From a virus (taxonomy: Duplodnaviria > Heunggongvirae > Uroviricota > Caudoviricetes): a DNA stretch of 26,750 nucleotides. Below, in pieces: positions 5,139 through 12,460 of this stretch (position 1 is the first letter of the stretch; each line of letters begins with the position of its first letter). The translations under genes were made by a program, and so were the position numbers. The DNA is taken from IMG/VR virus record IMGVR_UViG_2529293065_000012; one strand, 5' to 3'. Under the pieces are notes generated by a model. The model saw only the letters and a list, made by a program, of their open reading frames with translations, was not told the DNA's origin and did not search any database.

Positions 5139-7946
5139 ATGACGGCAGAGTACATCAGGGACTGGCAACAACCGCGCCACGCAGTGGGGCGTGAAGGAAC
5201 GGGGATCCCCGCTCCTGAATCCGCGCTTTCCTCCTGGCTGGATGCCTACCGGGTAGAGAACGAGCGCTGCCAGGAAATGGCTGATGCGGCGTTCTCCGCA
5301 ACGCCGCTGGGCAACCTGATTAATAAAAGCCTGGACGCACAGGAAAAACAGGACAAAACCATCACACTGGCAGGAGACGCCAGAAAACAGGCACGCGGCG
5401 CGGTGGATGAAGCCATGGCTTCGCTGCGCCTGCTGCCGTCCTATCTGCGCGATCCGCTTATTCGCCCCCTCTCCTTCCTGCGCAAAAAACAGGAAGCCGA
5501 TCGTCAGAAAGGCAAAAAGAGCTGGCAGGCTGAACGCTACGCGCGCGGAAACCTGCGCAAAATATTCGAACGTCTGGAGCGCACCGATCACCGCTGGCTG
5601 ACACAGGGTTATCGCTCCCTTGCCGGACGCGAACGCCTGGATGATTTGCTTTACCTGCCGCAGCTCAACCAGCACCAGATACAGACGCTGGCCACCATGA
5701 CGGCGGCGATGTTCAGCAGCACCTTCGAAAAACTCTGCGATGGCTTTGGCGCGACCGATGGCGAACTGACCATGGATGTAACGCTGAAGGCGTATCAGAT
5801 GCTGGCCCGCATGGGGTTACACCTGCACGCCATGCCGCCACATTACGAAGCTCTGAACAAGAGCGATCCGGATACGGAACTGTTACCGGGCGCAATCCTT
5901 CGCCTGACCTGTGCGGAATGGTGGAAACGCAAACTGTGGCTGTTACGTTGCGAGTGGCGGGAAGAACAACTCCGCGCCGCCTGTCTGGTTTCCAGAAAAA
6001 CATCGCCCTATCTGAGCCAGGACGCGTTAAGCGAGTTTCGCGCACAGCGCGAGAAAACACGCGATTTCCTGAAAAGTTTCATGCTGGAAAACGAAGACGG
6101 GTTCACGATTGATCTCGAGACAGTGTATTACGCGGGAGTAAGTAACCCGGTTCACCGTAAGGCAGAAATGATGGCCACCATGAAGGGGCTGGAACTTCTG
6201 GCCGAAGCCCGTGGCGACAAAGCGGTGTTTCTGACCATCACCTGCCCGTCAAAATACCACGCCACAACAGAGAACGGTCATCCGAATCCCAAATGGAACG
6301 GGGCCACCATGCGCGACTCCAGCGATTACCTGGTTAACACGTTTTTTGCGGCGGTCCGCAAGAAACTGAACCGCGACGGCCTGCGCTGGTATGGCATCCG
6401 CACGGTGGAGCCTCACCATGACGGCACCGTGCACTGGCATATGATGGTCTTTGCTCATCCGGAAGAAATCGACACCATTGTGTCCCACACCCGCGATATT
6501 GCCATTCAGGAAGATCGTCACGAGCTGGGTGATGATATTACCCCACGCTTTAAGGCGGAGTACGTCGACGGCTCAAAAGGCACGCCAACCAGCTACATCG
6601 CCACCTACATCGGAAAGAACCTGGACAGCCGCGCCGTAGATGGCATCGACCCGAAAACGGGCAAGCCACGCGTTGACCACGAAACCGGAAAATCAATGGC
6701 CGAGAGCGTGGAACGCGCCATCGGCTGGGCGCGCCTTCACCGTGTCCGCCAGTTCCAGTTCTTTGGTATCCCCTCCCGTCAGGTGTGGCGTGAACTCCGC
6801 CGCCTTGCCAGCCAGATGGCACGCAACCCGGAAGGCCCGCAACGGCTGAAGGATGACGCAATGGATGCGGTACTCGCTGCCGCTGATGCCGGATGTTTTG
6901 CCACCTACATAGAGAAACAGGGCGGCGTACTTGTTCCACGCCAAGACTACCTGATTCGCACCGCCTACGACCTCGCAGATGAGCTGAACGATTACGGCGA
7001 ACAGAGCGTACAGATTTACGGGATCTGGTCGCCGCTCATCGGGGAGTCTTCCCGCGTATGCACGCATCCGGATAACTGGAAGCTGGTAAGACGCAAACCG
7101 GAAGCGGAAGACAGCTCCCACGAAAATGGTTTTGACCTTCAGGGCGGCCCTGCCGCCCCTTGGACTCGTGGCAATAACTGTCCCCGTGTACAGGAAACGG
7201 ACAACAACGGGACAGAACAGCCGGAAGAACGGCCAGCACCGTGGCCGCAGCTTCCTGACGGCGTTGACGTGAATGAATGGATGCGCTCACTGAAACGGCA
7301 CGAACGCCGGGCGCTGATGCGTTCGCTGCGTGACAAACAGGCAAAAAACAGCAGTGATGAAATGCAGAACTGGACACAGAGCCGCAAACAGCCACAGCCT
7401 TTGCCTGATAACCACGAGTTACTCGCTAAAGAATGGCGGGAGTCTGCTGAATCTCTCGGCCTGCATATCGGTGAACAGCAGATGCAGCACCTGTTACGGG
7501 GCGGCAGTCTGTACGTTGACGGCAGCATCATTGCACCGCAGGGATTTGAAATTGTACGCAAACCGGATACCCGCCCGGACAGCCGAATCACGCAGCTCTG
7601 GCAACGCCTGAGTCGTAATCACGGCGTAAGCAGCACGGAGATCCGCCATAACCCGGTCGCCAGCTATCTGGAACAACTAGAGGCATCAGACCCTGAAGCC
7701 GCCGCACGCCTGGCATCCACACTTCAGCAAGACCAGAACACCATGAAAACACCAGTTACCGTACTTTCTGACATGCTGCGCGCCATCCGCGACGCAGAGC
7801 ACGCACAGAGAATCAGTGAAACCACTGAACGCGCCCGCCGCAAAGCAGACCTGCTGCGGGGTGGCCTGAGCAGTGGAAACAAAAAACAGACAAAAACGGG
7901 ATTCACAAATCCCGTAAATGAGCAAAAAACGCGCCGCGATATATGA
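5139..7946 (+). CDS. A: Rolling-circle replication initiator endonuclease (P2 gpA family), with a long C-terminal extension
   Basis: 935 aa. HUH-type motifs (TITCPSKYHATT ... HWHMMVF) and the catalytic tyrosine region (SYIATYIGKN) match P2 A. The roughly 170 C-terminal residues are low-complexity and charged. Confidence 0.9.
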   Translation: MTAEYIRDWQQPRHAVGREGTGIPAPESALSSWLDAYRVENERCQEMADAAFSATPLGNLINKSLDAQEKQDKTITLAGDARKQARGAVDEAMASLRLLPSYLRDPLIRPLSFLRKKQEADRQKGKKSWQAERYARGNLRKIFERLERTDHRWLTQGYRSLAGRERLDDLLYLPQLNQHQIQTLATMTAAMFSSTFEKLCDGFGATDGELTMDVTLKAYQMLARMGLHLHAMPPHYEALNKSDPDTELLPGAILRLTCAEWWKRKLWLLRCEWREEQLRAACLVSRKTSPYLSQDALSEFRAQREKTRDFLKSFMLENEDGFTIDLETVYYAGVSNPVHRKAEMMATMKGLELLAEARGDKAVFLTITCPSKYHATTENGHPNPKWNGATMRDSSDYLVNTFFAAVRKKLNRDGLRWYGIRTVEPHHDGTVHWHMMVFAHPEEIDTIVSHTRDIAIQEDRHELGDDITPRFKAEYVDGSKGTPTSYIATYIGKNLDSRAVDGIDPKTGKPRVDHETGKSMAESVERAIGWARLHRVRQFQFFGIPSRQVWRELRRLASQMARNPEGPQRLKDDAMDAVLAAADAGCFATYIEKQGGVLVPRQDYLIRTAYDLADELNDYGEQSVQIYGIWSPLIGESSRVCTHPDNWKLVRRKPEAEDSSHENGFDLQGGPAAPWTRGNNCPRVQETDNNGTEQPEERPAPWPQLPDGVDVNEWMRSLKRHERRALMRSLRDKQAKNSSDEMQNWTQSRKQPQPLPDNHELLAKEWRESAESLGLHIGEQQMQHLLRGGSLYVDGSIIAPQGFEIVRKPDTRPDSRITQLWQRLSRNHGVSSTEIRHNPVASYLEQLEASDPEAAARLASTLQQDQNTMKTPVTVLSDMLRAIRDAEHAQRISETTERARRKADLLRGGLSSGNKKQTKTGFTNPVNEQKTRRDI

Positions 7947-7988
7947 AGCGCGCACAAAACAGGCGAAAACGGGATTTAAAAATCCCGT
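7896..7988. repeat. Two copies of an approximately 35-bp direct repeat, each containing a 20-bp palindrome (ACGGGATT-N4-AATCCCGT); candidate ParR-binding centromere/operator
   Basis: ACGGGATTCACAAATCCCGT at 7896-7915 and ACGGGATTTAAAAATCCCGT at 7969-7988, with similar flanks. The first overlaps the last codons of gene A; the second is 35 bp upstream of the parM-like ATG. Confidence 0.45.
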
Positions 7989-8022: not shown

Positions 8023-8982
8023 ATGAAAATTTGTATCGACGACGGCTCCACCAACATCAAGCTGGCATGGACTGAGAACGGCGAATGCCGCAACGCCATC
8101 AGCCCGAACAGCTTCAAGTCGGAATGGTCTGCGCCGTTCGGTGTCACGCAGCCCGCGAACTACATGCTTGATGGCGTGCGCTATGGTTTTGATCCGGTCA
8201 GCGATCGCTTTGTCCAGACGACCGACACGCAATACCAGTACAGCGATGTGAATGTCATTGCCATTCATCACGCGCTGGTCAAATCAGGCATCACGCCACA
8301 GGAAGTGGATGTGGTTGTCACCCTGCCACTGAGCGAGTATTTCGACACAAACGCACAGCCGGATATGACCAACATCAACCGCAAAAAAGCGAACGTCATG
8401 CGCCCGGTGGAGTACCAGAACGGTGAGGCATTCACTATCCGTAACGTGCGGGTTATGCCTGAATCCATTCCGGCTGGCTTTAAGGCACTGGCTAACATGA
8501 GTCCGTTTGAATCCCTGCTGATTGTGGATTTAGGCGGAACCACGCTGGATGTGGCAAAGGTTCAGGGGCAACTGGCAGGTATCAGCCAGGTGTTTTGCGA
8601 TCCACACGTAGGCGTTTCTCTGATGGCCGATGCCGTACTGTCGGTGATGGCCACTAACGGTATGCGCACCAGTCACCACATCGCCAATACCATTATCGAA
8701 CATCGCCATGATGAAGCCTGGCTGCGCCAGCACATCCACAATGACGCGCATTACGCCAGCCTGATGGCGGTTATTCGTGAAAAGGAAGAAACACTGAAAC
8801 AACGCGTGATCCGCGCGCTGGCGGTTTTTTCGGGTTACGGGCGGGTGATGGTTGTCGGTGGCGGGGCGGAGATTGTGGCACCCGCTATCCGCGAAGCCTG
8901 CGGAGTTAATGCGACTTTCATCGCGGACGGGGTGCCACAGTTTGCTCTGGTTAATGGGCTGTACGCAATGGACAAGGAGTAA
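8023..8982 (+). CDS. parM: ParM/StbA-like actin-family partition ATPase
   Basis: 319 aa. IDDGSTNIKLAW, ISPNSFK, YSDVNVIAIHHAL, VMPESIPAG, LIVDLGGTTLD, GVSL and VVGGGAE align with my recollection of plasmid R1 ParM. AAGGA ribosome-binding site. Confidence 0.85.
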   Translation: MKICIDDGSTNIKLAWTENGECRNAISPNSFKSEWSAPFGVTQPANYMLDGVRYGFDPVSDRFVQTTDTQYQYSDVNVIAIHHALVKSGITPQEVDVVVTLPLSEYFDTNAQPDMTNINRKKANVMRPVEYQNGEAFTIRNVRVMPESIPAGFKALANMSPFESLLIVDLGGTTLDVAKVQGQLAGISQVFCDPHVGVSLMADAVLSVMATNGMRTSHHIANTIIEHRHDEAWLRQHIHNDAHYASLMAVIREKEETLKQRVIRALAVFSGYGRVMVVGGGAEIVAPAIREACGVNATFIADGVPQFALVNGLYAMDKE

Positions 8983-8986
8983 ACCA

Positions 8987-9301
8987 ATGACGACATCAAC
9001 CAGACGGATAAGTTTCTATCTGAAGCCAGACGCCGTCAAGAGTGAACAAGAGGCGTGCAATTACCTCGATAGCCTGCCAGCCTCCGAACGCAGCCGCGCG
9101 CAACGCGCGGCCTTTCTGGCCGGACTGGCACTCATAAAACGCAACCCAGCATTTGCCTACTGGATGGCCGAATGGCCAGAGGATAACCTCCCCTTCAATA
9201 CCATTAGCACCAAGGAAACATACCAAGATAATCCGCCTAGCGGAATTGAATGCAATTTTTATAAAATAAAAAAGAATATTCAGACCTTATTCCCTGAATA
9301 A
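8987..9301 (+). CDS. parR: ParR-like centromere-binding adaptor
   Basis: 104 aa from the ATG at 8987 (in frame within ORF 8852..9301), AAGGAG 8 nt upstream. ISFYLKPD...LDSLPASERSRAQRAAFLAGLAL parallels the R1 ParR N-terminal ribbon-helix-helix region. Lies immediately downstream of the parM-like gene. Confidence 0.7.
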   Translation: MTTSTRRISFYLKPDAVKSEQEACNYLDSLPASERSRAQRAAFLAGLALIKRNPAFAYWMAEWPEDNLPFNTISTKETYQDNPPSGIECNFYKIKKNIQTLFPE

Positions 9302-9350
9302 TCTGATAATTGAATTTGAACTAATAAAACACATACCAACACATCATTCT

Positions 9351-9373
9351 GGCACCCTTGCTAACAGGGTGCC
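9351..9373 (+). terminator. Stem-loop (GGCACCCT / AGGGTGCC) between convergent parR-like and membrane-protein genes
   Basis: 8-bp inverted repeat with a 7-nt loop, followed by A/T-rich sequence. Confidence 0.35.
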
Positions 9374-9385
9374 AATGATTTCAAA

Positions 9386-10228
9386 TCATGATGAAATTGC
9401 CGAAGTTTTTTTATCGTGCTGAAGTACCGCAAATGCCATCAAAACCTCAAGAGAATAGCGGCGATAATACTTAACAAAACCATAATAAAATACTCGAGAT
9501 GCAGCAAGAAAAAACAAGAAAAGAGGACCAAAAGGTAACAATCTGATATTTATATCTATTAAGTAAGATAGAGGGGCTAGACACATAATCAACCAGACTG
9601 AGGCGAGAAAAACGAATGTAATGTTTCTACAAAAACCATATAGAGCAACATAGTTTTGTATTTTCAACTGATGATTTTTCGAATGTTCATACACATAATG
9701 ATAAGCAAGACGAAAAAGATCTCCCCTCAACCCTTTGCGTCGATACAACGTAGAAACAGAAAAATTATTTATATAGCCATTTCGTATTTGCGGCCAAAAG
9801 GCCTTAATAAGTATAGGATGTAGTGTGGTTTTATGACACTCAGCTTTATCAAGAATTGATACAGGAAACAAAAAAACTCTACGAATAAAATTAAATATCT
9901 GGAATCCTGTACCACGGCGTTTTATTTTCAGGGGGTTTTTCGGGGAAAACAGATAAGTCGAAGGATATCCAAGCTTACTGTTCATGTATTTTTCAATTAA
10001 ACAGGATGATAGAATAGATATGAAGTGACCTAAAATATATGATAGAACGATCAATGTCACATACATAAACACACTTATTATTTCTTTATATTTCAAGATG
10101 TGGTTTAGAATACTCTCGACATAACCAGGGTTAATTTCAATAGAAAACAAAAAAAGGATAAACAGGAATAATCCACCTGGAATTAGATACCCCAAAAAGT
10201 CATAAAATGAAAACGGATTCTGTGTCAC
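9386..10228 (-). CDS. Polytopic membrane protein of unknown function (280 aa, about 4 predicted TM helices), second gene of an AT-rich accessory operon
   Basis: ORF track entry. Apparent GTG start at 10226-10228 preceded by AGGGGG. Hydrophobic segments near residues 10-30, 50-78, 205-226 and 233-254. Markedly AT-rich compared with flanking phage genes (by inspection, not computed). Confidence 0.7.
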   Translation of the reverse strand: MTQNPFSFYDFLGYLIPGGLFLFILFLFSIEINPGYVESILNHILKYKEIISVFMYVTLIVLSYILGHFISILSSCLIEKYMNSKLGYPSTYLFSPKNPLKIKRRGTGFQIFNFIRRVFLFPVSILDKAECHKTTLHPILIKAFWPQIRNGYINNFSVSTLYRRKGLRGDLFRLAYHYVYEHSKNHQLKIQNYVALYGFCRNITFVFLASVWLIMCLAPLSYLIDINIRLLPFGPLFLFFLAASRVFYYGFVKYYRRYSLEVLMAFAVLQHDKKTSAISS

Positions 10229-10267
10229 ACTTCCCCCTGTGCTACTTGTAAATTAAAGAGTCAAACA

Positions 10268-10765
10268 TTATTTGTTTTTCCGTAAAGGATTAGCTTTCCA
10301 TCTTCTTACTAACCATTCGAATTCTTGATATGTAGTATCCGAATTAATGCTTTCTCTGATTGCTTTAATTAATGGCTCGGCAATATCATATGTCTCTACA
10401 ACTGTTGTGTAAGATGTTCTTTTTATCATTTTTTCATCATAAATACCTTCACGAATACTTACAGCAACTCGCTCGTAAAAATTTAAAATATATTGAAATT
10501 TTCGACGCTCGGCCATTTCCTCATCTGTTATTGTACAACCATCACAAGGAAAAACATAAGAACGAAATGATTTGCCTGAACGATGCACTTGTTTCAGGGT
10601 ATGCAATGACTCTATATATTGCATATCTTGCCGACTCTCAAAAAGAAAGTTAGCCGTTTGAGTTTTCTTTGCGGTACGCACATTGTAGATAATGGTTCCA
10701 ATGGCAACCAAAACGCCAAGCAGAACAATAGCATTGCTGATGATTTGTAGTGTTATTGGGTTCAT
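10268..10765 (-). CDS. Protein of unknown function with a single N-terminal TM helix (165 aa), first gene of an AT-rich accessory operon
   Basis: ATG at 10763-10765. N-terminal hydrophobic helix (IISNAIVLLGVLVAIGTIIY) then a soluble domain of about 135 aa. AT-rich. 39 bp from the downstream gene. Confidence 0.7.
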   Translation of the reverse strand: MNPITLQIISNAIVLLGVLVAIGTIIYNVRTAKKTQTANFLFESRQDMQYIESLHTLKQVHRSGKSFRSYVFPCDGCTITDEEMAERRKFQYILNFYERVAVSIREGIYDEKMIKRTSYTTVVETYDIAEPLIKAIRESINSDTTYQEFEWLVRRWKANPLRKNK

Positions 10766-10775
10766 CCTATTTCAT

Positions 10776-10807
10776 CCATAAAAAAGGCGGGGAGCAAATC
10801 CCCGCCT
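10776..10807 (-). terminator. Intrinsic terminator / attenuator hairpin on the minus strand, just upstream of the operon start codon
   Basis: 9-bp stem (AGGCGGGGA / TCCCCGCCT, 10785-10807) with a 5-nt loop, followed on the minus strand by a U6 run (10776-10784). Confidence 0.5.
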
Positions 10808-10826
10808 CATTAGAGGTCAACGTAGC

Positions 10827-10862
10827 TTAGAAACCATCAAATTCATCATACATTTTTTTCAT
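10827..10862 (-). other. Candidate 11-codon leader ORF (MKKMYDEFDGF)
   Basis: On the minus strand, GAGGGGG lies 5 nt before the ATG. The stop is about 19 nt upstream of the terminator hairpin. Confidence 0.25.
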
Positions 10863-10942
10863 ATCAACCCCCTCATAGAAATCATAACCACGTTTTGTGG
10901 TTTTTGTGACGCATAAACTACATCAAAGGCAAGCCACGGTCA

Positions 10943-10990
10943 AATATATAGGCATGCTTACCTGCACAAAAGTGCACAAATTTGCACAAT
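10943..10990. promoter_or_regulatory. TATATAT element plus three 10-bp phased TGCACAA direct repeats (candidate promoter/operator for the minus-strand accessory operon)
   Basis: TGCACAA at 10963-10969, 10973-10979 and 10983-10989. A/T hexamer at 10943-10950. Confidence 0.35.
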
Positions 10991-11413
10991 TTTTTTGAAC
11001 GACTTTTTGCCCTTCCGGCCCGCGTGGCGGCTGGAGCCGTCAAGGATCCGTGCATGCACAAAAAAACGCGCTTTTTCTGCGCGCAGGTGACGGGGGAACA
11101 GCCCGCGTTTCAGGGGGTAAATAGCATCCCCTGAACGATGTCGCAGCGACACAACAGAATGGCTGTATTTCTCACGCTGAGCGTGAAGAATACGTGAGGG
11201 ATTCTGATTTGATGGGGTGAAAGGTAAGGCCGTCAAAATCGCACTGAGGCGGCGAGAACATGCAGTCAACGCGGTGGGATTGCGTAAGAGTCTGACCGTC
11301 GATGGTGGCGATAAACTGGAAGGCGTCGTGAAATTATCTGACTGATACAGGAGCTGGAGAGTCGGGGCATAAATTTTTTATGCCCCGGCGAAGCAGCAGA
11401 CAAGCGAAGCGCG

Positions 11414-12460
11414 TCAGGATGTGGGCAGGGTGTCTAACAGTGCGTAAGGGTTAAAGCGGATCACCTCTTCGCCAAGCCAGTCATTGATGTGCTTCATGGC
11501 CTCCATGACGGGCATCAGCTCGTTAATTGCGTAAACCCGCGCGGCCTTCTCCACATCACCAAACGCACTTTTTTCACCCGGCATCGCCCCCATCAGTTGC
11601 GGCGGAACGCGGTGCGCAGCCAGCACATCATCACGGGATGCCGCCTTAACATTCATGAACTCATCCTTTGCGGTGATCTGCTGGAACGGCAAAATTTGCA
11701 CCCCCTCTTTGCCCCCGTTGGGCGCATGAATGAGCACGTTTTTAAACGCACCACCACCACGCGCACCCTGTAGCGTTTCTTTCAGGGAGTCCATGCTTTC
11801 GCGGTTTACCTGCGCTGCACCGATGTAGATGATGCACCCGGCGTGGGATCCGTTGTCGTAATACAGTTTTCTGAACATGTCCGCCGAATGAGACAGGCTG
11901 GCCGAGAGTAATGCGCCGAGATATTCCGGCATGCCGTAGATTTCCTGGTTAATGTCCGGATTCATCAGGTGGCACACTTTGCCTGGGCGAAACTGAAACG
12001 CATCCTTGCCATCCTGCACATACCACCATGATTCAAGATCGCTTCCGCGTCGCATGTATTTCGCCAGGGCGTGCCGTAATTTAAGCGGTTCGCCGAGCAT
12101 ATTGCTTCGAAGCTCAAGGAATGCGTTACCGAACACAAACCAGTCCAGCGCCAGCGCCGAGAAATCCTGCCGGGAAAGCAGCGGGTGCGGGATGTAGCAA
12201 CCGAGCAATACATTGCGCTTAAAGTAAAGCGCAGACTGATGCCAGGACGTTTGCCGGGCGGCTCTTGCCAGACCGTACCAGTCCACCGGGGTTTCATACC
12301 ACCGCCCGTTATCAGCACAGTACATATTGTCCAGCAGGTCATGCCCGGTCAGGCGATAAGGACCATCAAATGTGAATGCACTGAGCGATGATTCTTTCCT
12401 GAGCGCATCAGCGAGATCAATGCGTGAACTCATGCGCACTTTTTTATTTTTTCTGCTCAT
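11414..12460 (-). CDS. Q: Portal protein (P2 gpQ family)
   Basis: 348 aa. Position and orientation beside the terminase ATPase gene, with ATGA overlap at 12458-12462. Length matches P2 Q. Confidence 0.9.
   Translation of the reverse strand: MSRKNKKVRMSSRIDLADALRKESSLSAFTFDGPYRLTGHDLLDNMYCADNGRWYETPVDWYGLARAARQTSWHQSALYFKRNVLLGCYIPHPLLSRQDFSALALDWFVFGNAFLELRSNMLGEPLKLRHALAKYMRRGSDLESWWYVQDGKDAFQFRPGKVCHLMNPDINQEIYGMPEYLGALLSASLSHSADMFRKLYYDNGSHAGCIIYIGAAQVNRESMDSLKETLQGARGGGAFKNVLIHAPNGGKEGVQILPFQQITAKDEFMNVKAASRDDVLAAHRVPPQLMGAMPGEKSAFGDVEKAARVYAINELMPVMEAMKHINDWLGEEVIRFNPYALLDTLPTS

Follow-up and report, generated by a model that had tools for sequence, protein, structure and literature searches.

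The window analysed here (the whole stretch of 26,750 nucleotides from a tailed phage, a P2-like E. coli prophage) carries two AT-rich membrane-protein genes at the gpA/portal (tin/old) hotspot of P2-like phages, and the question is whether these genes form a single dedicated anti-phage system or have some other origin and role. Our comparisons show that they belong to a horizontally mobile accessory cassette, ordered as a promoter-like site, a micro-ORF of 11 codons, an intrinsic terminator, a DUF4760 gene, a 39-nt spacer and a gene for a 280-aa protein. The cassette is composed of two modules, each of which moves on its own through temperate phages and other mobile DNA, one being the micro-ORF with DUF4760, a self-contained moron, and the other a Csx27-like protein with four transmembrane (TM) helices. 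We tentatively consider the whole as a stack of two prophage morons gated by the leader and with a probable anti-phage role, an explanation that we favour and to which we give slightly less than an even chance.

Layout and limits of the cassette

The initial annotation described two co-directional minus-strand ORFs separated by 39 nt, one of 165 aa with one TM helix and one of 280 aa with about four, and both are confirmed. So is their richness in AT, with a GC content of 0.335 in the 280-aa gene and 0.351 in the 165-aa gene versus 0.52 in the window, and a GC3 of 0.29 and 0.27, respectively, versus 0.63-0.66 for the portal, gpA and ParM genes. They do lie between gene A and the portal gene, but parM and stbB, which had been left out of this description, occupy the same interval. 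Likewise, both coding genes are real, but the conserved micro-ORF, the third coding element of the cassette, had been overlooked, and the unit had been confined to 9386-10765 when it reaches upstream to about 10962, taking in a leader with the micro-ORF and the terminator. The features of the region are:

5139..7946, gene A
8023..8982, parM, a partition gene between gene A and the cassette
8987..9301, stbB, a partition gene between gene A and the cassette
9335..10962, minus strand, the variable cargo cassette, AT-rich, composed of leader, DUF4760 gene, 280-aa gene and 3' hairpin, with conserved P2-backbone flanks on either side
9351..9373, minus strand, 3' hairpin GGCACCCT-gttagc-AAGGGTGCC past the 280-aa gene, devoid of a T-run (read from the sequence)
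9386..10228, minus strand, 280-aa gene with GTG start and Shine-Dalgarno GGGGGAAG, coding for about four TM helices (phrog_12528, E 1e-68)
10229..10267, minus strand, 39-nt spacer with the Shine-Dalgarno of the 280-aa gene inside (read from the sequence)
10268..10765, minus strand, DUF4760 gene with ATG start, 165 aa, coding for a basic helical domain, presumably in the cytoplasm, anchored by an N-terminal TM helix
10784..10808, minus strand, intrinsic terminator, with a GC-rich stem of 10 bp and then a T-run (terminator scan and RNA fold)
10827..10862, minus strand, unannotated micro-ORF of 11 codons, MKKMYDEFDGF and stop, with a strong Shine-Dalgarno GAGGGGG (translation confirmed in silico)
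10881..10910, minus strand, promoter-like site GTCACA-18-TATGAT (consensus scan, 9/12 matches, weak evidence when taken alone)
10902..10886, inverted repeat AACCACaaaaCGTGGTT, overlapping the promoter-like site

On the portal side, the flank begins at 10962/10963 in the three alternative-cargo loci compared; on the StbB side, the match with O157 strains stops at about 9334. GC stays at 0.32-0.38 throughout the 9335..10962 cassette. Since the terminator scan found no terminator-like site in the 10229..10267 spacer, the DUF4760 and 280-aa genes are presumably co-transcribed. The 3' hairpin is kept between alleles, and both genes have evolved under purifying selection (omega 0.07 and 0.27); positive selection on the 280-aa gene was considered and rejected, with omega at 0.20-0.38 over its three thirds. 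Between the same two alleles, dS differs sevenfold for the two genes (0.039 versus 0.276), which indicates that they have been exchanged independently.

The earlier proposal that this hotspot holds swappable cargo is supported by the comparison of the locus across complete E. coli genomes. The flanks are common to 1,441 of 5,426 genomes and enclose the cassette in 289 (about 5-6% of complete E. coli genomes, ST131 and O111 strains included), with Ea22-like, XF1762, DUF3800 and further genes as other cargo between the same flanks. The suggestion that the pair is novel stands only in part: the literature searched contains no functional study of it, but Rousset et al. 2022 (Cell Host Microbe) had already catalogued it in their Table S5B as 'System #3, DUF4760', with 1,102 occurrences and 1 TM + 4 TM, and as the third most frequent cargo of the P2 hotspot. 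Their System #3 corresponds to the same two proteins at the same hotspot, with TM counts that agree with the Phobius calls in Table S5B, and its sequences differ from those in the window by one residue for DUF4760 and by about 13% for the 280-aa protein. It is a catalogue line only, and the pair does not figure in the tested-system tables S2A and S2B of the same study (Rousset et al. 2022), whose text and supplements, as searched, make no mention of the micro-ORF, the terminator, the gene separability, the EP-like fold or the Csx27 similarity. The supplements of a 2026 P2/P4 preprint have no entry for either protein. Our searches for DUF4760 retrieved one unrelated paper only, and those on protein accessions, peptide motifs and EDS1 + EP domain + Foldseek found nothing relevant. 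The cassette is one of the commonest cargoes of the P2 defence hotspot; what is new here is the separability of its genes, the unannotated conserved micro-ORF with its terminator and the N-terminal match to the Csx27 model.

The micro-ORF and terminator of the leader

The leader differs between alleles at 1 of 210 aligned nt. A micro-ORF ending in [DE]-[EG]-[FWY]-[DE]-x-stop is found ahead of 34 of the 40 unique DUF4760 loci, across Proteobacteria, against a background of 2.7% of random windows, and also in the Citrobacter phage phiSM and the Pseudomonas phage D14E. Its codon usage varies at these loci while the peptide is kept, and the motif is always placed 1-2 residues from the stop codon. 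This micro-peptide leader is conserved, yet missed by genome annotation, and its motif is unlike that of any leader peptide known to us. The terminator lies 18 nt past the micro-ORF stop and 18 nt ahead of the DUF4760 ATG; it is kept in 16 of 17 Enterobacterales-type leaders, with compensatory changes in the stem, as well as in phage D14E. Distant clades lack the terminator, and their micro-ORF has a stop codon that overlaps or abuts the DUF4760 start (TAATG), an arrangement that fits a co-translated partner peptide equally well. At least five genomes have an IS421 inserted in the terminator stem; NZ_OX637964 is one example of a strain disrupted by IS421. Because such insertions between leader and genes persist in several lineages, normal expression of the cassette is dispensable.

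A short ORF led by a Shine-Dalgarno and followed by an intrinsic terminator, upstream of a gene, is the sequence organization of a putative leader-peptide attenuator. As in known attenuators and arrest peptides (TnaC, SpeFL, MgtL and the eukaryotic MAGDIS uORF), the peptide sequence is conserved and not just the RNA, the motif stands at a fixed distance from the stop, and an intrinsic terminator precedes the regulated gene. By contrast with them, no alternative antiterminator structure was found for the leader of the cassette: in its minimum-free-energy fold (z-score -1.5) we identified the terminator and a weak pairing of the Shine-Dalgarno region with the spacer, but no conserved alternative helix. 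The Rfam scan of 8800-11600 yielded no leader family, and its one match, to SorX on the terminator, was weak (E 0.21). That the hairpin at 10808..10784 might be a phage cos site was also considered and rejected, as no P2 cos sequence occurs in the window at up to 3 mismatches and the hairpin also accompanies DUF4760 outside P2 backgrounds.

Two protein families that circulate separately

Neither protein matches Old, Tin, a retron or another named system, as had been thought from the outset: there is no complete PADLOC system and no relevant Pfam/NCBIfam match. The sole PADLOC match is that of the 280-aa family to the accessory protein Csx27, with nothing meaningful for DUF4760 among the PADLOC models. 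DUF4760 might have been kin to the 1-TM component of AC1, a validated '2TM+1TM+TIR' system, or to the 1-TM partner in the RT-nitrilase system; both ideas were rejected (hhalign probability <1%).

The 165-aa protein matches Pfam DUF4760 (PF15956) over model positions 2-141 of 141 (E 1.1e-34, 120 bits versus a gathering cutoff of 25), all 30 aligned homologues also match the family, and hydropathy delineates one N-terminal TM helix at aa 8-26. Its invariant residues include R45, K65, R68, R99, K115 and R137. The family is solitary, with no 280-aa homologue within 6 kb at any of 43 species-level loci. It occurs as a lone moron in prophages of Klebsiella, Providencia and Yersinia (lambda-like, P22-like and siphovirus types among its hosts), by itself at the same hotspot in the Citrobacter P2-like phage phiSM, and in Pseudomonas phage D14E, where it comes straight after the cI repressor; a second DUF4760 protein, of 198 aa, also stands alone at the E. 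coli hotspot. The cassette shows the hallmarks of a prophage moron, being swappable cargo between conserved backbone genes, with regulatory signals of its own, a deviant GC content that is low relative to each host locus, and different insertion sites in different phages. Some DUF4760 copies occupy chromosomal positions conserved within a genus and neighbouring housekeeping operons (ast in Rahnella, and a conserved site in Franconibacter), and these would suit just as well a gene that has long been resident and serves another purpose. Faint holin-family matches were seen in two members.

The fold of DUF4760, predicted with high confidence, appears similar to that of the EDS1 family, the only likeness being to the signal-receptor domain of plant EDS1/PAD4/SAG101, with 6-9% identity to the fold matches. 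Because DUF4760 is all-helical, we place the match on the EP half of these proteins. Pfam EDS1_EP matched none of the 30 DUF4760 members at E <= 10, and a profile search of PDB sequences with DUF4760 found nothing. In plants, the EP domain of EDS1/PAD4/SAG101 is the receptor of TIR-generated pRib-AMP/ADP and ADPr-ATP. DUF4760 differs from the EDS1 family in having a TM anchor in place of the lipase-like N-terminal domain, and there is no TIR gene near the cassette. It might nevertheless be the prokaryotic or phage counterpart of the EP domain, acting as a receptor anchored in the membrane and governed, in its activity or its synthesis, by the conserved upstream micro-peptide. Gene and peptide would then form a so far unrecognised immune module, widespread in temperate phages and made of a single gene plus a peptide, to which P2-like E. 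coli phages recruited a Csx27-like protein; we regard this fold-based scenario as quite improbable. If the similarity in predicted fold did reflect common ancestry, the supposedly plant-specific EP domain would gain a bacterial or phage origin, like the one that TIR and NLR-like components are by now agreed to have.

The 280-aa protein belongs to a much larger family (1,133 representatives at the 50% level). Hydropathy places its TM helices at about 12-30, 50-78, 202-224 and 230-248, around a basic loop of 120 aa, and the family has invariant polar residues (D10, H68, E79, H177, E181, H186, K189, R201) and an N-terminal module composed of the motif NPFSxYDFLGYxIPG and TM1-TM2. No Pfam model matches it, so that more than 1,100 clusters related to the Csx27 N-terminus remain without one, and the PDB fold search gave no informative match. 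Of the members compared with the PADLOC Csx27 model, 25 of 26 close ones and 32 of 40 diverse ones gave a match (best E 2.9e-8), and some also match tm_4, a second type VI-B-associated membrane model. The likeness concerns the N-terminal ~75 residues, with the motif and TM1-TM2, and the 280-aa protein and Csx27 are both small multi-TM proteins found in defence-related contexts. However, the match covers only model positions 4-63 of 206, a TM-rich region, rather than the full model, and the 120-aa loop carries invariant motifs of its own. In addition, Csx27 is an accessory of type VI-B1 CRISPR-Cas13b, whereas the cassette adjoins parM/stbB and the portal gene instead of cas13b or CRISPR; a near-identical annotated prophage record contains no cas gene, no cas13b and no CRISPR array.

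This family is equally independent, with no DUF4760 within 6 kb at any of 52 non-P2 viral loci. Its solitary members adjoin xis/int or lie in the early-left region of lambdoid prophages, where the gene is on the strand of the early-left transcript and precedes xis/int; others belong to an integron-like array or have a NACHT NTPase as neighbour. The idea that a 288-aa lambdoid homologue is full-length YfdS was rejected on context, the K-12 slot being occupied by the unrelated shorter yfdS/yfdT. Only P2-like E. coli phages pair the two families, and all 8 P2-like viral loci hold both. The two-gene module initially proposed stands as a pair kept together in these phages, but its obligate character is weakened, since each gene is normally alone elsewhere and their dS values are also unequal. 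This shows that two hotspot genes interpreted as one "system" can in fact be independent morons stacked side by side.

Possible roles of the cassette

If the cassette is indeed made of two anti-phage morons, both would be inner-membrane proteins of the lysogen directed against superinfecting phages, which they would exclude or else counter by abortive infection through membrane insult. Each would probably work alone, stacked in the way of P2 hotspots, which often hold more than one system (Rousset et al. 2022). In the same study, a validated P4-hotspot system consists of a hydrolase and a 3-TM protein, and the TM proteins of known systems are regarded as the effectors that kill the cell (Rousset et al. 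2022). We infer the anti-phage function from context, namely the hotspot position, the cI-adjacent position and the membrane topology.

The cassette resembles the genes for lambda RexB, P22 SieA, T4 Imm, HK97 gp15 and lactococcal Sie2009 in being prophage-borne and AT-rich and in coding for small inner-membrane proteins in an accessory slot; the position of DUF4760 in D14E, just downstream of cI, similarly recalls that of rexAB in lambda. For neither cassette protein did we detect sequence similarity to PADLOC or PHROG families with an annotated function. The leader would gate expression, its terminator by default keeping DUF4760 and the downstream gene low. The C-terminal motif of the peptide could modulate ribosome release or coupling and, through it, read-through of the terminator; alternatively, the acidic-aromatic micro-peptide could bind the basic EP-like domain, such that loss of the peptide frees the membrane protein. 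By analogy with the EP domains of the EDS1 family, the EP-like domain would be the likely sensor or ligand-binding part. Several observations speak against the anti-phage moron reading: the lack of a complete PADLOC system, the chromosomal copies of DUF4760, the persistent IS421 insertions, an EP likeness at the level of the predicted fold only, a Csx27 likeness over about 60 of 206 model positions, and the fact that no alternative antiterminator structure was found. Should the cassette prove anti-phage, it would represent a mechanism of membrane action not seen before and might also tie components of bacterial immunity to those of plants in a new way; should it not, it would still provide a clean example of a leader conserved at the peptide level that controls a mobile gene.

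Among the other explanations, an obligate two-component defence system, with a DUF4760 sensor and a 4-TM membrane effector neither of which works alone, would account for the short distance between the genes with no terminator between them and for their joint retention in 289 complete E. coli genomes, in the 1,102 loci of the Rousset survey and in every P2-like viral locus, and the combination of a sensor-like EP fold with a membrane protein akin to Csx27 suggests that the two share out the work. We nonetheless find it decidedly unlikely, given that each family is overwhelmingly solitary elsewhere, that DUF4760 stands alone at the very same hotspot in the Citrobacter phage and, in its 198-aa form, in E. 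coli, and that the sevenfold dS difference speaks for independent exchange. The two genes might instead serve lysogenic conversion unrelated to defence, altering envelope physiology, stress tolerance or host fitness and leaving phages untouched. The stable chromosomal copies in Rahnella and Franconibacter, the invariant polar residues of the 280-aa family, which resemble an enzyme or transporter site, and the presence at P2 hotspots of non-defence cargo such as the cytolethal distending toxin (Rousset et al. 2022) lend this possibility some weight. It remains on balance unlikely, as nearly every copy lies in a phage accessory slot, at an integrase border, in an integron-like array or beside a NACHT gene, and neither protein resembles known envelope-modification families.

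The immediate proximity of parM-stbB, both of which are present in almost all loci, also brings to mind an addiction or stabilization module for a plasmid-like prophage state, with a labile micro-peptide and a membrane toxin beside ParM/StbB; plasmid R1 carries hok/sok together with parMRC. The small upstream ORF, with its TAATG stop/start in distant clades, resembles the layout of toxin-antitoxin operons, and a terminator between micro-ORF and DUF4760 would favour an excess of the peptide. However, the micro-ORF and DUF4760 occur in many prophages and chromosomes devoid of partition genes, ParM/StbB is present in about a quarter of P2-like phages and most of these carriers lack the cassette, and we know of no antitoxin as short as 9-21 aa, all of which makes such a module very unlikely. 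Finally, small phage-encoded membrane proteins could act in the cycle of the phage itself and not in the lysogen, in lysis timing, as holin-like proteins or in DNA entry or exit, a role with which the early-left position of the 280-aa gene in lambdoid prophages and the faint holin matches of DUF4760 would agree. We deem this highly improbable for a cassette that is dispensable and swappable at its hotspot, has its own leader and terminator as is typical of morons, and resides in P2-like phages already equipped with genes for holin, endolysin and spanin, with DUF4760 found, moreover, at chromosomal sites with no phage around it.

A swappable cassette at the P2 hotspot

The two genes that the initial annotation described as an AT-rich membrane-protein operon are indeed co-directional on the minus strand, separated by 39 nt and predicted to encode one and about four transmembrane (TM) helices. 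They lie, as it stated, between gene A and the portal gene, an interval that also contains parM and stbB, overlooked at that stage and identified here with Pfam models:

5139–7946, plus strand: P2 replication protein GPA (gene A; Pfam)
8023–8982, plus strand: parM (StbA_N/ParM_N, E 1e-82)
8987–9301, plus strand: stbB (Plasmid_stab_B, E 2.5e-29)
9386–10228, minus strand: 280-aa ORF, GTG start, Shine-Dalgarno GGGGGAAG
10268–10765, minus strand: 165-aa ORF (DUF4760)
10808–10784, minus strand: canonical intrinsic terminator, 10-bp GC stem then T-run; DUF4760 ATG 18 nt downstream
10862–10827, minus strand: unannotated 11-codon micro-ORF MKKMYDEFDGF*, Shine-Dalgarno GAGGGGG
10910–10881, minus strand: promoter-like site upstream of DUF4760, first in leader order
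11414–12460: portal gene (Pfam)

The low GC content was also confirmed (0.335 for the 280-aa gene and 0.351 for the DUF4760 gene versus 0.52 for the window), and is accompanied by GC3 values of 0.29 and 0.27, respectively, versus 0.63–0.66 in the portal, gpA and ParM genes. Hydropathy scans place a single N-terminal TM helix before a basic domain with 24 K/R in the 165-aa protein, and about four TM helices flanking a 120-residue basic loop with 20 K/R in the 280-aa protein; by the positive-inside rule, the soluble parts of both would be cytoplasmic.

A near-identical annotated prophage (99.5%), itself a typical element of the P2/P88-like type, adjoins btuC in E. coli JNE120393. Using the stretch from stbB to the portal gene as query, we matched 1,441 genomes, in which conserved flanks end at ~9334 on the stbB side and resume at 10962/10963 on the portal side, enclosing elsewhere alternative interiors (Ea22-like, hypothetical+XF1762+hypothetical, DUF3800, ClpX-zinc-finger and other genes). 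Since the flanks are kept and the interior is swapped, the cassette spans ~9335–10962 on the minus strand. The proposal of swappable cargo at a hotspot thus held across related prophages, and the 9386–10765 interval first delimited contains both ORFs but is too narrow because the leader of about 200 nt belongs to the cassette. Of 5,426 complete E. coli genomes, 342 contain cassette DNA, always in the chromosome and in 289 cases at ≥ 80% coverage; three sequenced Peduoviridae phages contain it as well. We class it as prophage hotspot or moron membrane cargo.

The exact pair appears in Table S5B of Rousset et al. 2022 (PMC9122126) as ‘System #3’, with Pfam DUF4760, 1102 P2-hotspot occurrences and TM calls of one (protein 1) and four (protein 2); System #1 of that table is StbA/Plasmid_stab_B. 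The pair is catalogued already, not CHARACTERISED, and because of this 2022 listing the locus is a known candidate, not a new one, so that the novelty first suggested holds only for its biology, uncharacterised in the literature searched. Both protein sequences are missing from the tables of tested systems in Rousset 2022, the pair is covered neither in Vassallo et al. 2022 nor in a 2026 P2/P4 preprint, the single searchable paper mentioning ‘DUF4760’ is unrelated, and our literature search found no functional study of the locus. According to the preprint, the defence locus of 19% of P2 elements is occupied by unknown genes alone, and the unknown genes tested came from P4 only. Apparently undescribed in the searchable literature are the leader with its micro-peptide, which is conserved across Proteobacteria, the EP-domain-like fold predicted for DUF4760 (likened to the signal-receptor domain of the plant EDS1 family), the size and Csx27-like N-terminus of the 280-aa family, and the finding that the ‘pair’ consists of two stacked modules, each mobile on its own.

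The ParM/StbB pair is present in about a quarter of P2-like phages, which may persist as plasmids (Rousset et al. 2022, PMC9122126). In the 935-aa GPA protein, the Phage_GPA domain spans residues 179–498 only; the long C-terminal part (window about 7000–7950) has no domain match, and AT skew there is strongly positive, up to 0.43. In the common ST131-type allele (loci L058/L059), but not in the window allele, an additional gene on the opposite strand (WP_000236495, 174 aa, hypothetical) separates the portal gene from the portal-side flank; it accounts for the ‘hypothetical + hypothetical’ layout in Rousset Table S5A.

Two separable modules

Scanning the DUF4760 alignment against one genome per species yielded 43 loci from Enterobacterales, Halomonadaceae, Pasteurellaceae, Neisseria, Achromobacter, Pseudomonas, Rhodovulum and others. 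None of the 43 had a 280-aa homologue within 6 kb (HMM of the 280-aa family); their neighbours were heterogeneous, the downstream gene often lying on the opposite strand. In precomputed Pfam annotation, homologues with 47–81% identity were solitary insertions: between tail genes K and I of a Yersinia lambda-like prophage, within the arc/ant-type immunity region of a Providencia siphovirus, next to Bro-N and internal-virion genes in Klebsiella, and after astCADBE on the Rahnella chromosome. The Citrobacter P2-like phage Shae_phiSM has DUF4760 without partner at this same hotspot (portal … stbB-parM-gpA), and a second, 198-aa DUF4760 protein, 21% identical, is likewise solitary at the hotspot in E. 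coli. The DUF4760 gene of Pseudomonas phage D14E immediately follows the cI repressor gene on the same strand, the position that rexAB occupies in lambda.

Conversely, among 60 viral loci of the 280-aa family, DUF4760 is adjacent in 8/8 P2-like and absent from 52/52 others; of these, 14 immediately precede xis+integrase, 17 belong to a yfdP-Q-R-type early region and the remaining 21 are elsewhere. Both genes are under purifying selection between the window and ST131-type alleles, with 99.0% identity, dS 0.039 and omega 0.07 for DUF4760 versus 89.3%, 0.276 and 0.27 for the 280-aa gene. This unequal divergence points to differing histories and recombination between the two genes, and the pair is most simply read as two autonomous morons joined into a single operon.

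The 280-aa protein matches phrog_12528 (annotated function unknown) and none of the Pfam and NCBIfam models. Clustered at 50% identity, the family comprised 1,133 representatives in an exhaustive profile search, 258 of them with E ≤ 1e-30; almost all are 270–300 aa long, and they originate from Pseudomonas, Thioalkalivibrio, Sulfuritalea, Sideroxydans, Thermodesulfobacteriota and many metagenomes. In members 27–38% identical to the window protein, the N-terminal motif NPFSxYDFLGYxIPG is invariant or nearly so, as is a polar set (D10, H68, S74, E79, S90, H177, E181, H186, K189, N192, R201, K253, R257, E261), a pattern that points to a defined active or binding site. With PADLOC, 25/26 close and 32/40 diverse members matched the Csx27 model (best E 2.9e-8), and 6 and 10, respectively, matched the type VI-B-associated membrane model tm_4. 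The Csx27 match is limited to model positions 4–63 of 206, no cas13b is present, and for Csx27 itself no mechanism is known. The AlphaFold2 model of the protein is moderate (pLDDT 70), and no informative PDB neighbour of it was found. Four distant homologues on long contigs occupy four kinds of setting: a one-directional array of small cassettes at 6.2–14.8 kb of a 3.8-Mb contig (L127, ENA ERZ25074695) encoding NADAR, RraB, NTP_transf_6, GNAT acetyltransferases and many unknowns, which resembles a chromosomal integron cassette array; a site adjoining integrase and excisionase; one adjoining a NACHT/AAA_16 protein; and an isolated position between two operons.

A conserved micro-peptide leader

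The leader arrangement is repeated in other genera and at unrelated insertion sites, with micro-ORFs reading MKKWFDEFDGF* in Klebsiella, MKKFDEFDGF* in Yersinia, MRTKFDEFDGF* in Providencia, MAFDEFDGF* in Franconibacter, MEAMFDEYDWF* in Rahnella, MKKVFDEFDGF* in Citrobacter phiSM and …REEYEGI* in phage D14E. Distant DUF4760 genes are preceded by peptides ending in …NEGWEV*, …NEGWDGF*, …REGWDGC*, …SEGWDV* or …SDGWDG*; there the terminator is absent and the micro-ORF stop often overlaps the DUF4760 start (TAATG). The ending [DE]-[EG]-[FWY]-[DE]-x(1-2)-stop was found within 200 nt upstream at 34/40 unique DUF4760 loci and in 2.7% of 5,000 random windows drawn from the same loci. Codon usage among 17 distinct Enterobacterales-type ends indicates that selection acts at the peptide level: D(-6) and E(-5) are invariant with both synonymous codons used, Gly(-2) uses all four codons, all three stops occur, pairwise codon differences are 269 synonymous versus 177 non-synonymous, and most residue alternatives are conservative (F/Y, D/E). 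Of these leaders, 16/17 have the terminator, with compensatory stem changes. The element matched no Rfam family and no description in the literature searched. The micro-ORF could encode a cis-acting leader or arrest peptide gating read-through or coupled translation; alternatively, its acidic-aromatic product could act in trans as a partner for the basic domain of DUF4760. At least five complete genomes (LS4, MDR_56, MSI001, the ST131 isolate L130, NZ_OX637964.1, and one other) carry IS421 inside the terminator stem (window about 10790–10802), where it parts promoter and micro-ORF from intact DUF4760 and 280-aa genes; these are natural leader-disrupted alleles.

Several smaller elements accompany the leader. 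An inverted repeat, AACCACaaaaCGTGGTT (window 10886–10902, minus strand), overlaps the -10 element of the promoter-like site, and Klebsiella DUF4760 loci have a different one, GACACTacatAGTGTC, at the equivalent place; such a repeat might serve as an operator, or as terminator for a unit lying upstream. Directly 3' of the terminator T-run (window ~10770–10783, minus strand) lies ATGGATGA, conserved in many Enterobacterales DUF4760 leaders (the window and loci L008, L012, L015 and L018); in the window it starts a 5-codon ORF, MDEIG*, and the TGA stop of this ORF shares bases with the DUF4760 ATG. In loci L028, L031, L032 and L034, about 50 nt beyond the micro-ORF, the stretch GGCTTCTGG[A/T]TACAAACAGGAGCC, with one variable position, encodes GFW[I/L]QTGA, the start of the DUF4760 TM helix. 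It is common to a Pasteurellaceae bacterium, Achromobacter, Nitrotoga and a marine gammaproteobacterium, an unexpected nucleotide identity among distant taxa for which a conserved RNA hairpin or recent transfer could be responsible.

Possible functions of the cassette

We tentatively favour, at slightly less than even confidence, a reading in which both proteins would be inner-membrane factors expressed from the prophage and acting against incoming phages, by exclusion or membrane-mediated abortive infection, with the leader holding expression low by default. We propose this role because of where the genes are found (at the hotspot, next to cI or int in other phages, and in integron-like or NACHT neighbourhoods), their moron architecture and the precedents of TM effectors. 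Points that run contrary to it are these: the cassette matches no complete defence system, DUF4760 also occurs at genus-conserved chromosomal sites beside housekeeping operons, and disruption of the leader by IS421 is tolerated. Conversion serving something other than defence is an alternative that we consider unlikely.

An obligate two-component system would agree with the adjacency of the two genes at all 8 P2-like viral loci of the 280-aa family; with DUF4760 solitary in so many other genomes, it is rather improbable. The cassette could instead be a toxin-antitoxin-like addiction module linked to the neighbouring ParM/StbB genes, a doubtful proposition at a hotspot where the same stbB flank adjoins other interiors. 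A role in the phage's own cycle is very improbable beside the Rahnella chromosomal copy. We also give little credence to a phage/bacterial EP-domain receptor under micro-peptide control and evolutionarily linked to plant EDS1, an idea that stems from the predicted fold and would be of very high interest if true.

Two further DUF4760 contexts were observed. Pasteurellaceae bacterium Macca has two variants, spread over at least 10 contigs whose flanks are in many cases near-identical (L028–L030, L041–L046, L052), an indication that a multi-copy prophage or transposable element carries the module. A 4.2-kb ENA contig (P0229) encodes a 287-aa protein with DUF4760 and a second Pfam family, PF06541, possibly a natural fusion of DUF4760 to another domain.
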